Assembly: GCA_048938005.1 (NCBI GenBank) | Contig: JBHLMQ010000040.1 | Location: 1 to 27,623, forward strand | From: Promethearchaeota archaeon | Lineage (GTDB): Archaea > Asgardarchaeota > Lokiarchaeia > Sigyniarchaeales > SOKP01 | Direction of reading: 5' to 3' | Length of the DNA: 27,623 nucleotides | Shown: positions 205-15,805 of the stretch, one piece after another | How the letters are laid out: every line of letters begins with the position of its first letter | How positions within the stretch are numbered: the stretch's first letter is position 1 | Notes under the pieces: generated by a model | Told to the model about the DNA's origin: nothing | What the model saw: the letters and a program-made list of their open reading frames with translations, nothing else | The model's database searches: none | Made by a program: the position numbers and the translations under genes

Positions 205-271
205 TCTATCACCTTATTCTTATGATTATTTCTTTGTTTGTTCTACAAAATCGTGCAGTGTTCTAAACTTT

Positions 272-311
272 AGTATAATATGTTTAAGTATAATATGTTT
301 AAGTATAATAT
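272..311. repeat. 15-bp tandem repeat (AGTATAATATGTTTA x2.7) upstream of the A2M gene
   Basis: Exact copies at 272-286 and 287-301, partial copy at 302-311. Confidence 0.85.
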
Positions 312-349
312 TATGATATAAAGAATGATTTTGAAATAGGTTTACGAAG

Positions 350-3300
350 ATGAGGAGACGAATAAAAGCATGTATTTTTTTATTAGTAATTTGCATTCAG
401 TTTGTTTTATTAGGTTGTAGTGTAGGTGGCACCAACTTCTTTATTAATAACAAACCAGAAGTACCTGACATGAAAATGCACCAAAAAGAGGGGGCATCTT
501 ATTCATCTCCTTATTATTTTCCTGTTAATAAATCCACTCCCTTAATGACGGAAGAGCTTTCCGAGGTGGAAACTGATCAGAGTCCTAAGCTGGTTTCTAA
601 TTATTATTATTATTATAATGATTATGCTCTAACACTTAATCTTGATAAATATGTTCTTATTGTTGGTGAAATCCTTACTATTAATTTAGGATTAACTTGT
701 AATTTAACTGCCTCGGCAGGAAAAATAATTTCTGTAGAAGTTTATCAAGGATTTTATCGAGATTATTATTTCTATTACCCAAATTATTATGAGACTGCAA
801 CACCAATTTTTACAATAAATTTAACTACTAATGCGAATGGTCTTGTTTCAATACCTTTTACCATGACTTCTACTGAAGGAATTTATACCGTTTATGCTTA
901 TACTGAGAATTGTCGAGCTTATAAGGAATTTACTATAGGCGAAGTTGGAATTTTTTATAAAGGTCCAAGATACTACAAGCAAAATCAGTTATATACCGCA
1001 GCGGTCCATATTGTTAACCTGACTGATTTTTCAGGTATCCCATTAGCTGGTTTTAATTATTCTGTTTCTTATTATGATTATTCAAGTACTAGCTGGATTT
1101 TTTTAACAACAAATGAAGGTCAAACTGATGATTCAGGTTATGCTATTTTTACTACAGATATTCCTTTAGATATAGATGATTATTATATACTTAGATTAAC
1201 AATACAAACTATTGATGGAAAAGCTGAATATCAGACCTTTTTGTATGAATCCTGGGACTATTATTATTATTGTATGTGGGGAGGGCAACAAAAAACAATC
1301 CAAGAGCGATTTCAGTATGTGGTAACAACTGATAAGACAATTTACAGTCCGGGCGATACTATTTTTTTAAGAGTTTTAGTTTTAGAATATTCATTCATGA
1401 ATGAAACTAAAAAAGCAATGCAAAATACTCCCGTTTCTTTGACCATCTATAATCCTAATGAATTTGCTGTTTTTTGGTCAACTATTACAACTGATGATTA
1501 TGGTATCTTAACCTTTACTTTTCCATTAGATGAAGATTGTGAATTAGGATATTATGGATTTGAATTTAGTCAATCAAATAAAAAATATAGATACAATATT
1601 AAGGTTGAATATTATGTTAAACCAGTTTTTAGGGTAGATATTGATACAAACGGAAAGGAATTCTATCCTACTTACAAAAATTTATTCGAAGGTTTTATTG
1701 AAGCAACATATTACTTTGGTCAGCCGGTGGTGGGAGCATCTGTTGAGCTCACTATCCAAAATTATTGGGGAGAACTCAAATTTAAGTTGGAGGGAATTAC
1801 AAACAGTGAAGGAAGGTTATATTTCTCGATTAATTTACAATATATTCCTGATATAGATTATACTTTTAGCGTACTAACAAATGTAATAGATATTTATGGT
1901 AGGAGTGCATCTATAGAAAAAATATATACTCGCATTGAGCAGTTATTTGCTTATGGTTATTTAACAAATTGGGCACCTAACCCTACTGAAACCTTAGAAT
2001 ATTATTTTTATGTATTTCAATACATTATGTCCGGGGATGAGTATTATTATTGGCATTGGATGTATAATCCATTAGCTAATCTCACAGCTAATATTGAAAT
2101 CTTTGGAATAGTAGGATATCCAATGTATACTTCATTAATTTCTGATAAGAAATTACTTGCAACTTACTCTGAATCTACAAATAAATTTGGAGCAGGTAAA
2201 TTGGAATTTAAATTACCTTTAGGACAAATAATACCTTATGATCTTTTTGAAATTAGGCTTTCAGTTACCCTTAAGGATGGTAGATCTACAACATCATCTT
2301 ACTATTTCCGTTATAAGAAATATAGTTTAGACATTAACATTATCGATTCAAACTTAGATTTAGGTGAGACTCTTGAATTTGAAGTAACCTTTAAAAACGT
2401 TCTGACAGGTTCTCCTTCAACCGGAGAAGGTAGGATTTATATTTATGATGCAAAGTGTCAACTGATAGGTCGAGTTAGTGATATGATTTCTGGGAGCAAA
2501 ACGTATAATTTTTATATTCCAAGTTTTTATCCTGAAGGAAAATATTATATATATTCGTATGTATATTCTCGCTCAAATGAATATTATGGTGGATTTAGTT
2601 ATCACTCTGCGCATGATTTTTTTGTAGTAGGTAGTTTTTATTCAGTATCATTTGTTACTAATTATACAAATACAGGAACTTATTATGACCAAATAGAAGT
2701 TCAAATTAATGATGTTATTGAGATTAATGGCATTTCAAATGTATCATCAAATATTCCACTTTATATCGAAGTATACAAACGTGGTTTGCTTTTTTCAGTC
2801 CCATTAGAGGTAATCGATGATAAATTCTCTTATAACCTCTCTGTTAAAGCAGATTTCGCACCTGATTTTACGATTATAATTTATACTATTTCCGATTTAG
2901 GAAAACTTTATGAAAGTATTCTTGCTGTTCACATCGATTTTTCTTATACCCTTAGTCTTTCAACAGATAAAGAAATTTATGAGCCTGGTGATTTAATAAC
3001 ATTGACTATTACACCATCAGACAATATAACTTCAGTTTTATCACTTTCTTTTATAGACAGTGCTGTACTTGATGTAGAACCAGAAGATGATTCGGAATTG
3101 GCTTATTTTACAATGAATACTTATTCGACTTATATTAGGTCAGGAAGTTCGTGGGGTTCTGGATTTATGTTTGATAGCTATTGGTGGTGCGGTTATGGGA
3201 TCCCCGCAGGTGGTGTTTATTATAGAGAGAATGAAGAACCAGTACCTTTATTAGATGATTTTTATGCGTTTCCTTATGGAGAAAATGGACACTTTAAACG

Positions 3301-6300
3301 TGATACCCCTTCTTTTGATGATTTACTCTCAACTTTAGACACAGAAATACGAAAAAATATTTCAGAATCAGCTAATTGGATGCCAAAATTGATCATTTCG
3401 GAACAAACTAACATTACCTTTAAATTAACCGATAATATAGGTGAATGGACTATTAGAACTGTAGGGAATAGCATGATTGGAGATTTTAATGATCTAGTGT
3501 TATGGGGAGATGTTGAAACCATACAAATTAAATCATTTTTACCGTTTTTCATAGAGTTTGACATACCACAACCAGTAGGTCAAGATGATATCTTAGATGT
3601 AAAAGGGTATATTTACAATTATATAGGGACTGATGTATATGCATTAGTTGCCATCAATGCCCCTGAACTTGCCATATTAAATAAGGATACACAAGAATTA
3701 TTTATTCCAAATGGTTTTATTTCAGAGGTTGAGTTTTCTGTTTATTGTATCGAGCCTTATTTCCAAAACATTACACTCTTGGCAGTTACTGAAGTTTCTG
3801 GAATACAATATTCAGATGCAAAACAAATAACGACTTATATAAAACCAAATGGGATTGAAGTCATAAATAGAACTATAGGATTTTTAAATGCTACTGATGG
3901 GTCTTTGCTCTTAAACTATACTGTGGATCCACTCGCAATTTACCATAAAGAAACATTAGCATTGTATACTGATCTAATGGATATTTCGATTGAAAGCTGG
4001 CAATCATTAATTGGTTATCCTTATGGGTGTATAGAACAAACAATATCTAGAACGCTCCCAACAGCTCTCATATTTAACTATTTAAAACAAACGGGGCAAC
4101 TTACTACTAATCTTGAGCAAGAGTTAACTTCAATGATCTTAGAAGGACTTAATCGGATTTATAATTTTCAACATAGTGATGGTGGTTGGGGCTGGTGGAG
4201 AGATGATACGTCTAAAATCCTGATGACTTCTATTGTTGTATCTGCATTGATCCAAATTGAGGAAGTTGGTTTCCAAATTAATTCAATTACATTAAAAAGA
4301 GGTATTGAATATCTAATTAATCATCAATATCCTAATGGTCTTTGGGATTTTCAAGAATATTCTTCAAACACTTTAGAAGCCACAGCTTTTATTCTTAAGG
4401 CAATAATGAATTTTAATAATAAAACTTCTCAGATGGACACAGCTATTAGTAAAGCTGTTAATGAGTTTAGAAGCTTATGGAATACTGAAGAAATGCAGAG
4501 TGCCTATGCGGCTTCTCTTTTTTATATCGCAACACGTGATAATATTTATGAAAATACCACATTTAATGATATATTAATTCAATTTATCAAAGATAATAAA
4601 AAAATCGAAGAGAATACAATATTTTGGGACAGTGATGTAAATAACATTTGGTACTGGCGAAAGTTAGGAAATATTGTTGAAATTACATCTTATGCTGTAT
4701 GGGCTCTTGCACTTGATGATTATGTAAATAACTATGCTTTAATCAAAAAAGCAGTCCGATATTTATTGAATCAACATAATCGTTGGGGGTGGGGATCAAC
4801 TGCAGATACCGCAGCAGCGATTACTGCTTTGACAGCAATTAAGGGAATTATTCTTACTGGAGGATTCATAGACTTCAATGGAACAGTTTCTGTTATGATT
4901 AATAACCATAAACCTCCTCAATATGTTTTAAATTTCACAGAATCTAACAATAACCCAGATGAAATTCTATTAAATCTGCGTGAATATATAACGGAAAATA
5001 CTAATACAATCAATATCTCCTTGAATGGTTCTGGTCAAATATGCTATATTTTTGAAAGTGTACAGATTTTACGTTCAAATCCAAAAATAGAGATTCCAGC
5101 TATGATAGAAGTTTCGAAAAATGAACAATTCTATGTGGGAGTAAGATTCTCTAAAATTGATGATAGAATGCCAATATTTGATGCTACATCATCATTACTT
5201 CATATTCCTCAAAATTTTCAAGATCCTGAAGCGAACTATACGATTTTTACTCCAATCCTTATTAATGGGAGTGAGATTTTCTTTTCTTTAATTGCACCAA
5301 ATATAGAAGGTGATTACATTTTAGAGGGTGTCTCATTTTTAGGATTTATTCAATTTAATGATACATCAAATAATTCTTCAAGTTATCAAATTTTTCAGCG
5401 CACAGTCGGACCTATAATTATTAGAGTAGGAACCCAACCACCATCATCATATCCTTTAATTGAAACAATTCATAGTTCAGCAGCGGAGGATTCTGAATTG
5501 TTAACTCTTACAAAGCAAGTTTCCAAACAAGAATTCCTTGTTCCTGGAGAAATTATAACTATTACGATAAAAATCTCAAATAATGGAGACCCACGCCAAT
5601 TTTACGTTCTTGAAGATAAACAACCTACAGGAACAATATTTTTATCCGATTCTGTTAAAATATTAGGAGATTATAATAATTCAGAAATTACGCATGGATT
5701 ATTTTTGTCAGGAATTCATTTCTTCTTTCCTATGTTAGCGATTGGAATTACTGAAATTACTTATCAACTTCAAGTTGATAATATAAAAAATTCTTACTCA
5801 GGAGAATGTAAACTTTGGGGTATGTACGATGATTTTTGTATCTCTGCTTACTCAATAGTATTAGAGAATATTCCCCGAAAACATAGTCCTGATAACTCAA
5901 TTTATCAAGATTTATTATTACCATATATTTTAAATATTAGTTTCAGCCAAAAGTTTAAAGAACCTAAAATACAGCTTCAAATTAATCTCCAAGCAACAGA
6001 TAATAATGGTATTAATAGAATTCGTGTAGTCTTTTCACAAAATTCTGGATGGAGGGTTCAAACTCTGTATTCAATGAAAAATCAAGAAGACTTTTTAATA
6101 ATTATTACAGACATTAAAAATATTAATTCTATAGTGAAAATGTATCTTGAAGTTTCTGACATCTACGGAAATATTGCCACTACAAATTTAATCCCCGTAA
6201 AAATCTTTGCTTATGAGATTATTCCTTATCTCATCATTGGAGTGATTTTGGGGCTTTCAATTGGATTAGCAAGCATATCTTCAATACTTTATAAAAAGTA

Positions 6301-6406
6301 TGAAGAAAAGAAACAACGTGAGCAAGATCGGATAATCAATAAAACAAAACATGAAATAAGTAAAGTTTCATTTTTAGATGAATCTGAAGAAGAAATGAAA
6401 AAGTGA
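350..6406 (+). CDS. Alpha-2-macroglobulin family thioester-containing protein, secreted and membrane-anchored
   Basis: MG-domain motifs TDKTIYSPGD and TDKEIYEPGD; IRKNISESANWMP (the IRxxFxETxxW-type motif after the bait region); thioester motif YPYGCIEQT (Cys codon 4028-4030); QHSDGGWGWW and WGSTADTAAAITAL in the thioester domain; N-terminal signal ending LLGC; C-terminal TM helix followed by a charged tail. Confidence 0.92.
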   Translation: MRRRIKACIFLLVICIQFVLLGCSVGGTNFFINNKPEVPDMKMHQKEGASYSSPYYFPVNKSTPLMTEELSEVETDQSPKLVSNYYYYYNDYALTLNLDKYVLIVGEILTINLGLTCNLTASAGKIISVEVYQGFYRDYYFYYPNYYETATPIFTINLTTNANGLVSIPFTMTSTEGIYTVYAYTENCRAYKEFTIGEVGIFYKGPRYYKQNQLYTAAVHIVNLTDFSGIPLAGFNYSVSYYDYSSTSWIFLTTNEGQTDDSGYAIFTTDIPLDIDDYYILRLTIQTIDGKAEYQTFLYESWDYYYYCMWGGQQKTIQERFQYVVTTDKTIYSPGDTIFLRVLVLEYSFMNETKKAMQNTPVSLTIYNPNEFAVFWSTITTDDYGILTFTFPLDEDCELGYYGFEFSQSNKKYRYNIKVEYYVKPVFRVDIDTNGKEFYPTYKNLFEGFIEATYYFGQPVVGASVELTIQNYWGELKFKLEGITNSEGRLYFSINLQYIPDIDYTFSVLTNVIDIYGRSASIEKIYTRIEQLFAYGYLTNWAPNPTETLEYYFYVFQYIMSGDEYYYWHWMYNPLANLTANIEIFGIVGYPMYTSLISDKKLLATYSESTNKFGAGKLEFKLPLGQIIPYDLFEIRLSVTLKDGRSTTSSYYFRYKKYSLDINIIDSNLDLGETLEFEVTFKNVLTGSPSTGEGRIYIYDAKCQLIGRVSDMISGSKTYNFYIPSFYPEGKYYIYSYVYSRSNEYYGGFSYHSAHDFFVVGSFYSVSFVTNYTNTGTYYDQIEVQINDVIEINGISNVSSNIPLYIEVYKRGLLFSVPLEVIDDKFSYNLSVKADFAPDFTIIIYTISDLGKLYESILAVHIDFSYTLSLSTDKEIYEPGDLITLTITPSDNITSVLSLSFIDSAVLDVEPEDDSELAYFTMNTYSTYIRSGSSWGSGFMFDSYWWCGYGIPAGGVYYRENEEPVPLLDDFYAFPYGENGHFKRDTPSFDDLLSTLDTEIRKNISESANWMPKLIISEQTNITFKLTDNIGEWTIRTVGNSMIGDFNDLVLWGDVETIQIKSFLPFFIEFDIPQPVGQDDILDVKGYIYNYIGTDVYALVAINAPELAILNKDTQELFIPNGFISEVEFSVYCIEPYFQNITLLAVTEVSGIQYSDAKQITTYIKPNGIEVINRTIGFLNATDGSLLLNYTVDPLAIYHKETLALYTDLMDISIESWQSLIGYPYGCIEQTISRTLPTALIFNYLKQTGQLTTNLEQELTSMILEGLNRIYNFQHSDGGWGWWRDDTSKILMTSIVVSALIQIEEVGFQINSITLKRGIEYLINHQYPNGLWDFQEYSSNTLEATAFILKAIMNFNNKTSQMDTAISKAVNEFRSLWNTEEMQSAYAASLFYIATRDNIYENTTFNDILIQFIKDNKKIEENTIFWDSDVNNIWYWRKLGNIVEITSYAVWALALDDYVNNYALIKKAVRYLLNQHNRWGWGSTADTAAAITALTAIKGIILTGGFIDFNGTVSVMINNHKPPQYVLNFTESNNNPDEILLNLREYITENTNTINISLNGSGQICYIFESVQILRSNPKIEIPAMIEVSKNEQFYVGVRFSKIDDRMPIFDATSSLLHIPQNFQDPEANYTIFTPILINGSEIFFSLIAPNIEGDYILEGVSFLGFIQFNDTSNNSSSYQIFQRTVGPIIIRVGTQPPSSYPLIETIHSSAAEDSELLTLTKQVSKQEFLVPGEIITITIKISNNGDPRQFYVLEDKQPTGTIFLSDSVKILGDYNNSEITHGLFLSGIHFFFPMLAIGITEITYQLQVDNIKNSYSGECKLWGMYDDFCISAYSIVLENIPRKHSPDNSIYQDLLLPYILNISFSQKFKEPKIQLQINLQATDNNGINRIRVVFSQNSGWRVQTLYSMKNQEDFLIIITDIKNINSIVKMYLEVSDIYGNIATTNLIPVKIFAYEIIPYLIIGVILGLSIGLASISSILYKKYEEKKQREQDRIINKTKHEISKVSFLDESEEEMKK

Positions 6407-11021: not shown

Positions 11022-12026
11022 ATGAGGTTTATTTCAGGTTTAAAAAGTCTATCAAAAAAGACAATTTTACTAATTATCATTATCCTTTTTGTCGTTTCTT
11101 GGTTTTTTTTCGTATTTGGGTTTGATGTATTTTCAAATATCACATTCAGTAGATATTTTTTATATTTTCTTGCTATTTTAGCGGGATTTACATTTATGTT
11201 ATTTATAATTTCATTTTTTAGACCTTTGGAAAAAATGGGTATAGTTCTTATAGTTACAGCAGCAGTTTTAACATTACCTATTATGTGGGTTTTTAGTTTG
11301 ATAATTGGTTTTAGTATCTTTTTTTCATTCTCTATTTTAGCAAATGCTATAATAACAGCATTTTTTGCTTTTAAATTTTGTATGGATACATCTATAAAAG
11401 TTGATGATTTCTTTTATAAAAAGGAGAGTTCTAGAATATTCACAAGAATAATAGAATTTGTTACTTTTTTTCTACTTAGCTTGTTGTTTACATTATTATT
11501 AATAAGATTTTTTGGATTTAAAAATATTTCAAATGCCTTCTTTAATCTGTTTTTAATAGGATTAATATTAATCGGAATTGTGTTAATAAGGATAATTTTT
11601 ACAAAAAAATTAGCTGCCTATATTACTCTTTTTAACTTAATGACTTCATTTTATCTTCTTTATCTTGTTATAGATCTCTTATCAGAATTTATTTTCTTTG
11701 ATGATTCAGGTTATGATATTTTTGCATTTTGTATTGATTTAGCCTTGTTTGTATATATCATTGGCTCAATTTATGATAGAGTTGACTATATACAGGAGAA
11801 GCTTAAAATATTTAGAGTTGATACAATAGCCTTATTTGTTATTTTAATGAAATTATTGGTTCAGATTATGGGGATTTTCCAAGAATTATATATACCTTAT
11901 TTCCCCTTAGCAGTATTGCAGCGAATAATAATTGAGGTACAGATTTTATGGTTTTTCTTTGTAATTTTTACACTTATAGTTGGAATTTATACTATTTTTA
12001 AACATAAAGAAGGGAAGAGCTCTTGA
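11022..12026 (+). CDS. Hypothetical polytopic membrane protein
   Basis: 334-aa ORF with about 10 hydrophobic helices; no recognised motif. Confidence 0.8.
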   Translation: MRFISGLKSLSKKTILLIIIILFVVSWFFFVFGFDVFSNITFSRYFLYFLAILAGFTFMLFIISFFRPLEKMGIVLIVTAAVLTLPIMWVFSLIIGFSIFFSFSILANAIITAFFAFKFCMDTSIKVDDFFYKKESSRIFTRIIEFVTFFLLSLLFTLLLIRFFGFKNISNAFFNLFLIGLILIGIVLIRIIFTKKLAAYITLFNLMTSFYLLYLVIDLLSEFIFFDDSGYDIFAFCIDLALFVYIIGSIYDRVDYIQEKLKIFRVDTIALFVILMKLLVQIMGIFQELYIPYFPLAVLQRIIIEVQILWFFFVIFTLIVGIYTIFKHKEGKSS

Positions 12027-12140
12027 AATCATATATATAGAATATTATGAATATTTTTAAAAATAATTAAAAAGTTTATTTCTGATTTTATCGTTACTTT
12101 ATATTAATCAAAATAAATATCATTAAGGAAAAAGAGAAAT

Positions 12141-12278
12141 ATGAATGAAACTGAATTAAGAAAACGAAATATAAAAGGATTAATCATAATTTTCTCTGTA
12201 GTGGCATTGATTGTAGCGATAACTATTATTAGTGTAGTATTTTTTGGTCCTACTGGAGGTACAGGATGAGGTGGTTAA
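12141..12278 (+). CDS. Small single-pass membrane protein, candidate selenoprotein (45 aa with Sec43; 42 aa if TGA is the stop)
   Basis: MNETELRKRNIKGLIIIFSVVALIVAITIISVVFFGPTGGTG-[TGA 12267-69]-GG-TAA; SECIS-like hairpin downstream. Confidence 0.6.
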
Positions 12279-12360
12279 ACTCCGATAAAAGCCAATATGT
12301 CAGTTGTTTTTAGGAAAATATCTCGAAATTGAATAAATATAAGATAATATAAATACTGAA

Positions 12361-12403
12361 TGGAATGATTCTTGCGAAAAAATTTTAGTGGCAGGAGGAC
12401 CGA
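12361..12403 (+). promoter_or_regulatory. Putative eukaryote-like (Lokiarchaeal type) SECIS element
   Basis: ATGA (12365-68) T TCTTGC - GAAAAAA-led loop - GCAGGA G GA (12398-99): AUGA/GA core, 6-7 bp upper stem and apical adenosines, in the 3' UTR of an ORF with an in-frame TGA. Confidence 0.55.
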
Positions 12404-12542
12404 CCTTGCAATGGTTTCGGTATAGAAAAGTATAATATTAAGAAAATCCCATTAATTATTTATTTTTTATTTTTTGAAATTAAATTAGTATTTTCTAATT
12501 ATAATAAAAAATTTTAAAAAAATTAGCAAGTTTAGGATTAAT

Positions 12543-12695
12543 ATGTCAGATGTGAAACTAATAGTAAATGAAAAAAAAATCCCTTTAAAAGATTTTATGC
12601 AGGAAATGCTAACAAATATAATTCTAGGTTATCTAAAATCTACAAAGGGGATACCGGAAACAATTGAAAACATTAGAATTGAAATTAATCTGTAA
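12543..12695 (+). CDS. Small protein (50 aa) resembling the stand-alone C-terminal domain of archaeal MobB
   Basis: MSDVKLIVNEKKIPLKDFMQEMLTNIILGYLKSTKGIPETIENIRIEINL; fits the recalled V.L.VN...IPL..F......I.G....LKG.....I.I.I pattern. Confidence 0.7.
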   Translation: MSDVKLIVNEKKIPLKDFMQEMLTNIILGYLKSTKGIPETIENIRIEINL

Positions 12696-15549: not shown

Positions 15550-15805
15550 AATGTCAATCTTCCCTGTTATTATTCTAATTAATACCTATATAACTAAAAA
15601 CTATATTGTTTAATAAAATCATCTAATTTATTGTTTTAATAATAGGATATATTATCTGGAAAATAGGTATAGAATCCGGGTACCAAGTTTATAATACTTT
15701 ATAAATTCGTGATGGTGATACATACAATAAATAATTTTATTGCTCAGAGAAAAAATTAAAATTTGAGTTAATTAATAATTTTTTTAAAAAGAAAAATATA
15801 ACTTT

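Follow-up and report, generated by a model that had tools for sequence, protein, structure and literature searches.

The question raised by this locus is whether a TGA near the end of a very small open reading frame (ORF) is a stop codon or a codon for selenocysteine (Sec). The ORF is located at positions 12141-12278 on the + strand of a 27,623-nucleotide stretch from a Promethearchaeota archaeon (contig JBHLMQ010000040.1, assembly GCA_048938005.1; class Lokiarchaeia); this whole stretch is called the window here. We found that the ORF is very probably a real selenoprotein gene of a new family, which would encode a 45-residue single-pass membrane micro-selenoprotein through UGA recoding directed by a selenocysteine insertion sequence (SECIS) of the Lokiarchaeia type (lokiSECIS). 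The parts of the gene were as follows.

12141..12278, + strand: predicted selenoprotein gene, 45 codons and TAA, with TGA as codon 43, read as Sec.
12141..12176, + strand: basic N-terminal segment, residues 1-12, with 4 K/R and 2 D/E; predicted cytoplasmic.
12177..12245, + strand: single transmembrane helix, residues 13-35 (23 aa), by hydropathy parsing.
12246..12266, + strand: Gly-rich linker of 7 residues with 4 Gly and no charge; predicted outside the membrane.
12267..12269, + strand: in-frame TGA predicted to be read as selenocysteine, TGA in 67/67 loci.
12270..12278, + strand: Gly-Gly tail and true TAA terminator, read from the sequence.

The codons were ATG at 12141, GGA at 12264-12266, TGA at 12267-12269, GGT GGT at 12270-12275 and TAA at 12276-12278. 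An earlier note on this DNA, which proposed an overlooked archaeal membrane selenopeptide, had given this Gly-flanked TGA and the GGT GGT TAA behind it exactly. With genetic code table 11 the ORF is 12141..12269 and encodes 42 aa; with TGA as Sec the product has 45 residues and Sec is third from the end. Two further studies provided contigs (run X7 record 8, 12050-12451; run X10 record 2, 12200-12349) that contain the TGA unchanged, and it is therefore no assembly slip. The DNA runs carrying the locus were sediment and mangrove metagenomes.

When 60 relatives were searched in translation with the 45-residue product and the hits were translated, 16 first homologue loci were obtained. All 16 shared the architecture, had TGA at the corresponding position and stopped next at TAA. 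Seventy-one loci were parsed, comprising two non-Sec look-alikes with poly-Gly tails, two unparsable loci and 67 Sec-type family members. The Sec codon was TGA in 67/67 family loci, never TAA or TAG, and it was the sole invariant column in the 67-sequence alignment A6. The next in-frame stop past it was TAA in 55 loci, TAG in 5 and TGA in 7.

The peptide is under coding constraint. On protein-guided alignments in frame 0, the ratio of nonsynonymous to synonymous changes (pN/pS) before the TGA was 0.56 and 0.54 in frame in two groups and 0.76-0.96 out of frame, and the second codon position was the least variable there. Past the TGA, paralogue group B gave 0.47 in frame against 0.64 and 1.30 out of frame. 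The residues behind the TGA were also conserved: a Cys was found within -3..+5 of the Sec in 58/67 members, with the patterns U-x-C (39), U-x(2-4)-C (10), C-x-U (7), C-U (1) and U-C (1).

These results bear on the reading that the TGA is an ordinary stop, that the product is a 42-residue membrane peptide, and that the hairpin behind it (described below) serves in termination or RNA stability or is what remains of a decayed SECIS. Gene callers using table 11 give exactly this 42-aa "hypothetical protein", and among the genome's open frames of at least 200 codons TGA ends 304 of 2344 (TAA 1719, TAG 321). However, an ordinary stop would be expected to change to TAA over time, as has happened at the end of the adjacent 334-aa gene (TAA 19, TGA 2 and TAG 1 in 22 orthologous loci, taken as an internal control), yet TGA was kept throughout the family; and a Cys placed two residues past a "stop" in the 39 U-x-C members, together with the constraint in group B, would be senseless in an untranslated region.

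The hairpin supplied the second line of evidence. In Lokiarchaeota, HdrA, VhuD, VhuU and PrxL are genes with lokiSECIS (Mariotti et al. 2016, PMC4989117), and that paper describes the element as AUGA, a 9-bp stem, an 11-nt loop (first five mostly A, last G, usually preceded by A) and GA. The window gene has the same arrangement of an in-frame UGA and a hairpin in the 3' untranslated region (UTR) close behind the stop. The earlier note had named 3'-UTR elements of this eukaryote-like Loki type, and one was found at 12365-12399.

12365..12399, + strand: lokiSECIS core, by strict pattern match, covariance model R1 and covariation.
12365-12368, + strand: AUGA of the core; 12369-12377 with 12389-12397: its 9-bp stem, 8/9 pairs; 12398-12399: its GA.
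12378-12388, + strand: 11-nt apical loop, A-rich, starting AAAAA and ending AG.
12353..12423, + strand: extended SECIS, in which 12353-12359 and 12417-12423 form the lower stem around the SECIS hairpin and a further small hairpin (12402-12416).

The strict lokiSECIS pattern matched at only 11 sites on both strands of the 3.72-Mb genome, the window included. Four of the others followed genes for HdrA or HdrA-VhuD that have in-frame TGAs, one was behind a small membrane ORF on contig C80 (a paralogue) and one behind a 167-codon frame with two adjacent TGAs; the remaining four were without a credible TGA-containing ORF. A first version of the pattern had matched in 10/16 first homologue loci, and a SECIS was found by pattern behind 63/67 family loci. 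The distance from UGA to SECIS was 37-125 nt with a median of 98, and 98 nt in the window.

Covariance model R1 was trained on three HdrA/VhuD SECIS of the same genome only; the SECIS on contig C21 was misaligned by MAFFT, left out of the training and used as a held-out test. R1 gave the window hairpin 37.8 bits (E 1.3e-4 genome-wide). Scanning the 3.72 Mb, it found seven sites at E<0.001, and all seven were behind TGA-containing ORFs: the three training elements (58-59 bits), the C80 paralogue (45.1), the HdrA-VhuD on contig C49 (44.5), recovered though it was outside the training set, the window (37.8) and the C17 "UU" ORF (37.1). The next-best match in the genome had 25.1 bits (E 0.13). R1 detected the element at the expected place in 29/30 family sources (two only at E 0.02-0.07; L027 was missed) and in 31/38 further Sec-type loci, while it matched 0/2 non-Sec look-alikes and 0/8 weak-hit loci without TGA at the site. 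Thirty loci from a PF02662 search in 31 genomes were used as negative controls because this search gave mainly Cys-type MvhD; around these, R1 gave one match (L085, 59.3 bits).

Compensatory changes were found in 8/9 stem pairs among 34 aligned R1 matches; paired cells reached 89.9%, against 38-62% with a slid partner, and 0/500 shuffles reached the score, on an alignment that was fitted to the model and so favours the structure. In the extended SECIS of the window (12353-12423) the lower stem, the SECIS hairpin and the second small hairpin form a three-way junction. The same shape was seen, by eye and in constrained folds, for family members and the HdrA-VhuD SECIS on C12, C18 and C49 of this genome. 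The lower stems co-vary in three-way-junction SECIS, and the second hairpin has the form ACC..GCAA..GGU; genus g28 retained the second hairpin, and its lower stem was often absent in constrained folds. The window hairpin is a bona fide SECIS, of the same kind as serves HdrA/VhuD in this genome. A terminator or relic would hardly share a design indistinguishable from the HdrA/VhuD SECIS and be found by a model trained only on those, and the ordinary-stop reading is accordingly highly improbable, even with the poor folding energy of the hairpin and the lack of Cys homologues (both given below) in its favour.

The genome was also found to contain the machinery for Sec, for which the earlier note had asked. 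A tRNA-Sec with anticodon tca (61.7 bits, above the Rfam cut-off) adjoins a SepSecS gene (382 bits), and an EFsec-like gene (231.9 bits) is about 4 kb away; a full-length PSTK-like gene had 146 bits. The EFsec-like and PSTK-like matches are below bacterial or equivalog cut-offs, but they are full-length or clustered with tRNA-Sec. Two tandem SelD genes (C86:1934-2749 and 3231-4019, - strand) have one in-frame TGA each; PMC11227280 reports two or more selD genes in some Lokiarchaeia. SepSecS was found in 153/161 genomes of the class, and its co-occurrence with the family is therefore uninformative.

Several observations weigh against a recoded TGA. Read-through of the window gene lengthens the product by only three residues. 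In group A, pN/pS past the TGA was ambiguous (0.78 in frame, 0.74 and 1.04 out of frame), and the protein-guided alignments may bias all these ratios toward frame 0. At least 15 open codons followed the TGA in frame 0 in 52/67 loci, and in frame +2 in 38/67; since frame +2 is also often open, this openness decides nothing. Cys-for-Sec homologues are the customary, not the defining, validation of a new selenoprotein, and none was among the matches from the 161 class genomes and 400 phylum genomes searched; of the TGA or Cys (TGY) homologues that the earlier note looked to, only those with TGA appeared. No SepSecS match was found in four family-bearing genomes (G107, G133, G135 and G140; 79-95% complete). 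The genome under study is a metagenome-assembled genome with 7.23% estimated contamination. R1 is narrow, as it missed the known HdrA-VhuD SECIS on C21, L027 and 7/38 distant loci; it does not recover the divergent SECIS of family f6 and genus g18. The fold including the extended SECIS had a minimum free energy of -15.8 kcal/mol, and the fold energy was no better than that of shuffles (z +1.13 for 12270-12460 and -1.22 for 12350-12428). An Rfam scan of the window at E<=10 gave no SECIS family, which was expected because, according to PMC4989117, the SECIS models of that time miss lokiSECIS. Lastly, no RNA run was listed with the locus. Set beside the invariant TGA, the lokiSECIS and the Sec machinery, these points leave the proposed membrane selenopeptide supported, and recoding by lokiSECIS is the well-supported part of the mechanism.

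The family is widespread in the class. A profile search of 161 genomes of the class at E<=0.01 gave matches in 79, and at E<=0.001 the 67-sequence profile matched 141 of 400 from the phylum. It was present in 101/134 genomes of the window's taxonomic family and 46/53 of its genus, in 39/42 genomes of genus g28, 5/5 of genus g18 and 3/3 of f6, a second family of the class. In sister family f2, one profile search matched 0/14 genomes and the other gave 1 weak match in 14. Weak matches beyond the class were rejected as members: at the six places examined there was no TGA at the site, and the proteins were single-helix proteins with Cys-rich tails or unrelated membrane proteins. Among the former type, L145-L147, L149 and L150 from other Asgard families combine one helix and a basic N-terminus with a repetitive tail that is rich in Cys and Ser and begins G-C-C; the Sec column of the profile aligns to Cys in three of them, and they could be distant Cys-rich analogues of the family. 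Small single-helix proteins with a long poly-Gly tail and no TGA were also seen at C97:39444-39611 (+ strand), L102 and L124; the last two had no R1 match. All of these are family-like but without Sec.

Over the 67 members, the N-terminus had a mean of 4.5 K/R, the helix a median of 23 residues, the linker a median of 9 residues (mean 3.3 Gly, 1.2 D/E and 0.15 K/R) and the extension past the Sec a median of 26 residues. By the positive-inside rule, the predicted topology is N-in/C-out: the basic N-terminus would face the cytoplasm, and the Gly-rich tail would be exposed on the other side. The mean of 4.5 K/R ahead of the helix, compared with 0.15 in the linker, bears out the earlier note's caveat that this orientation is opposite to that of SelK/SelS. 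In the AlphaFold2 model of a long-form relative, residues 14-42 are helical with a predicted local distance difference test (pLDDT) score of 77-87, the Gly linker has pLDDT <50, and a second helix starting at the Sec has pLDDT about 55, which is low confidence. The linker of the window's protein would be flexible, as the corresponding long-form linker has pLDDT <50.

The ending GGTG-U-GG, which the earlier note pointed out, is present in the window; it is a derived short form, and in the commoner form GGGG-U-x-C precedes another 25-33 residues or so. The nearby Cys was absent in the window and eight other members, and short tails of 1-2 residues after the Sec also occurred in L041, L042, L052, L053, L126 and L129. 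The window's clade lost both the Cys and the extension of about 30 residues. These short forms, which are 38-49% identical to the window's protein (except L041, 84%), keep the SECIS and the TGA. The survival of TGA and SECIS in such divergent short forms argues that Sec insertion itself is what selection acts on there. The same genome contains a paralogue of 78 residues with U-PSTC (C80:640-816, - strand; locus L091), with its own SECIS at 522-562 (- strand, 45.1 bits) and a 50-aa gene at 241-390 (- strand) 80% identical to the window's copy.

The Gly run directly before the Sec in most members suggests another reading, in which the ORF encodes a precursor whose leader is cut at the Gly-Gly run (double-glycine or lipobox-like) and a Sec-first peptide is released or lipid-anchored; the long forms would then release a peptide of about 30 residues beginning U-x-C. 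The hydrophobic stretch, with its median of 23 residues, has however the length of a membrane span and not of the core of a signal peptide, the short forms would release only 2-3 residues, and the neighbourhood comparison revealed no conserved peptidase, transporter or maturation gene beside the selenoprotein gene. We regard such processing as extremely improbable.

With the intact membrane protein as the preferred reading, the steps are probably as follows. The UGA at codon 43 would be recoded to Sec by Sec-tRNA(Sec) and an archaeal/eukaryote-type EFsec, directed by the Lokiarchaeia-type SECIS in the 3' UTR 98 nt downstream. If the predicted topology is right, the flexible tail would then present a selenol at the outer surface of the membrane. 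Since the Sec is paired with a nearby Cys in most relatives, U-x-C and C-x-U there could form a selenenylsulfide redox couple. The window's form, whose clade lost the Cys and the extension, would need an external partner for its Sec, for example a second copy or another thiol. From these features we infer an outward-facing redox or scavenging function, either thiol/selenol oxidoreductase-like or removing oxidants or chalcogens; no conserved enzyme neighbour supporting a redox function was found in the neighbourhood comparison.

Comparison with known proteins placed the family apart. SELENOK and SELENOS cross the membrane with a single helix and have their Sec in a disordered, Gly-rich tail, 2-3 residues from the C-terminus, and in SelK the Sec-bearing tail is on the cytosolic side. 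The window's protein is alike in the single helix, the Gly-rich tail and the near-terminal Sec, but its basic residues are before the helix and its tail is predicted outside, not in the cytosol, and most members of its family have U-x-C and the extension. At E<=0.1, neither PF10961 (SelK/SelG) nor PF06936 (Selenoprotein S) was listed for the window's protein or for a long form, and neither was among the 25 most frequent of the 95 families matched by the 67 members at E<=1. The likeness proposed by the earlier note thus stands for the architecture and is an analogy rather than membership, since profile matches and predicted topology fail.

Animal thioredoxin reductase has a C-terminal Gly-Cys-Sec-Gly tail, and the family resembles it in a flexible, Gly-flanked Sec/Cys pair at the chain end that could shuttle redox equivalents; here there is no flavoprotein body, and the tail is attached to a membrane anchor and nothing else. 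VhuU, the separated C-terminus of the large subunit of NiFeSe hydrogenase, is a soluble protein with a hydrogenase C-terminal motif and no membrane span. At roughly 50 aa (PMC4989117 and PMC11291895) it is, like the window's protein, a very small archaeal selenoprotein with one Sec. Identity with VhuU was rejected, as the window's protein has the 23-residue hydrophobic helix, and no hydrogenase family was among the Pfam matches listed for it, a long form and the 67 members. PF12669 (FeoB-associated Cys-rich membrane protein) is likewise small and single-helix with a Gly/Cys-rich tail, but the family has Sec instead of the Cys cluster and there is no feoB gene beside it in the window; 3/67 members matched PF12669 below the gathering score, the best with E 0.11.

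No Pfam or NCBIfam family was found for the protein. In public databases the family occurs only as "hypothetical proteins" of 39-54 residues cut at the TGA, or full-length with W. Among 29 matched database proteins, ten were inspected: the seven near-full-length ones (P0003-P0007, P0009 and P0012) all had W at the Sec site, and the three short ones all ended just before the TGA site; the other 19 were 39-54 aa. P0003 is the L054 product except for W in place of U, which indicates that TGA was called as Trp, and the source contigs of the W-bearing proteins were evidently gene-called with a TGA=Trp code. The family is invisible in protein databases because gene calls truncate it at the TGA or put Trp there.

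The family was undescribed in a full-text literature search, with the proviso that supplementary tables of PMC4989117 and PMC11227280 could list candidates. The survey of the Asgard selenoproteome worked by homology to known families and, in its available text, gives seven families, none like this one (PMC11227280); a 2026 review repeats the seven-family list (PMC13188914). The accessible part of the 2016 SECIS-first scan mentions no further candidate in its Loki assembly (PMC4989117), and the portions at hand of a 2021 recoding paper and a 2024 wetland paper name only known selenoprotein families. The window's protein is unrelated to the seven families, being a 45-residue membrane peptide and not a soluble redox subunit, and no Cys-containing homologues of it were found.

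The neighbourhood of the gene contained the following features.

11022..12026, + strand: upstream neighbour, an uncharacterized polytopic membrane protein of 334 aa, syntenic within the genus.
12098..12105, + strand: TATA-box-like octamer, 36-43 nt upstream of the ATG, read from the sequence.
12455..12478, + strand: T-rich tract after the SECIS, read from the sequence.
12543..12695, + strand: downstream neighbour, a conserved 50-aa protein whose gene follows each of the two selenoprotein paralogues in the genus.

The gene order in the genus is MFS transporter (-), 334-aa gene (+), selenoprotein gene (+), SECIS, 50-aa gene (+) and MFS transporter (-). Through tblastn, the 334-aa protein had 22 near-full-length and 2 partial matches (30 loci, L026-L055, the window's own L044 included); it matched DUF3087 weakly (19.7 bits, below the cut-off), and its gene is unlinked to the paralogue group. 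That the SECIS is shared with the 334-aa gene was rejected, because the stop of this gene is TAA in 19/22 orthologues and because paralogue loci without the gene keep the SECIS. The octamer may be the selenoprotein gene's own archaeal promoter. A crude TATA pattern at -50..-28 was found in 22/67 family loci, a count that is not discriminating because the DNA is only about 30% G+C, as in the window. A sigma-70 promoter scan of the locus was set aside as irrelevant, the host being an archaeon. The T-rich tract is possibly an archaeal oligo-T terminator; a run of at least 5 T within 110 nt after the SECIS occurred in 33/63 loci and is not discriminating.

The 50-aa protein is 56-86% identical in 40 loci. 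Its gene was found in 25/30 loci of one set and 12/41 of another (the paralogue locus L091 included) and also follows the paralogue group in other species, and 21/40 loci fetched with the protein have the membrane Sec ORF and the SECIS upstream. It had no Pfam match and no PDB match by sequence, and resembles the last 46 or so residues of NF011062 (MobB/FeS-domain fusion) at E 7e-6, far below the cut-off. The position of this gene behind both paralogous copies in the genome and in many relatives allows the reading that recoding is real but the ORF is mainly a selenium-sensing leader tuning the 50-aa gene; in the short form of the window, moreover, the two translation outcomes differ by only three residues. 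Yet about 140 nt, with the T-rich tract and an A/T-rich upstream region of its own, separate the SECIS from the next ATG, and the pattern detects no SECIS in 17/40 loci that contain the 50-aa gene. Genus g28 has a different gene in the downstream position, a helix-turn-helix regulator (by eye from the sequence), and the linkage of the 50-aa gene is therefore not family-wide. Together with the constraint at the amino acid level and the architecture conserved across genera, this makes a leader role very improbable, and a selenoprotein acting by itself is preferred.

Two further features of the window were noted: the largest ORF, of 2018 aa, at 350-6406 (+ strand), and a C/D-box snoRNA-like match to RF00344 at 15706-15769 (+ strand), with 21.6 bits and E 6.7 where the gathering score is 43, which is probably chance or a generic archaeal C/D sRNA.

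Elsewhere in the genome, C17:134470-134973 (loci L090 and L195) is a frame of about 165-167 codons with two adjacent in-frame TGAs ("U-U"), ending 11 nt before a lokiSECIS (134979-135019; R1 37.1 bits). Both TGAs were kept in 27/27 matches listed, from 24/26 genomes of the genus, and R1 matched directly downstream in 7/7 fetched loci. The protein had no Pfam or NCBIfam family, and the frame may represent another selenoprotein family not yet reported, one with a Sec-Sec dipeptide.

The recoding mechanism is known; what is new for Archaea is the class of protein and the place where it is likely to be located. The family differs in kind from the known ones, being very small, membrane-anchored, probably outward-facing, without Cys homologues and widespread. 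Considering these features, it is reasonably probable that this is a Sec-obligate Asgard family without Cys versions, single-pass and with a selenol or selenenylsulfide outside the cell, which would be the first membrane-anchored extracytoplasmic archaeal selenoprotein, and that together with "U-U" it shows SECIS-first searches to enlarge the Asgard selenoproteome substantially. Much less likely is the corollary that the tail-Sec design of SelK/SelS was, at least as a design, already present in archaeal relatives of eukaryotes. If true, the finding would add a new functional class to archaeal selenium biology, offer a compact natural reporter (45 codons and a 70-nt SECIS) for eukaryote-like lokiSECIS action without SBP2, and mean that new selenoproteins can still be found by scanning Asgard genomes for SECIS first.

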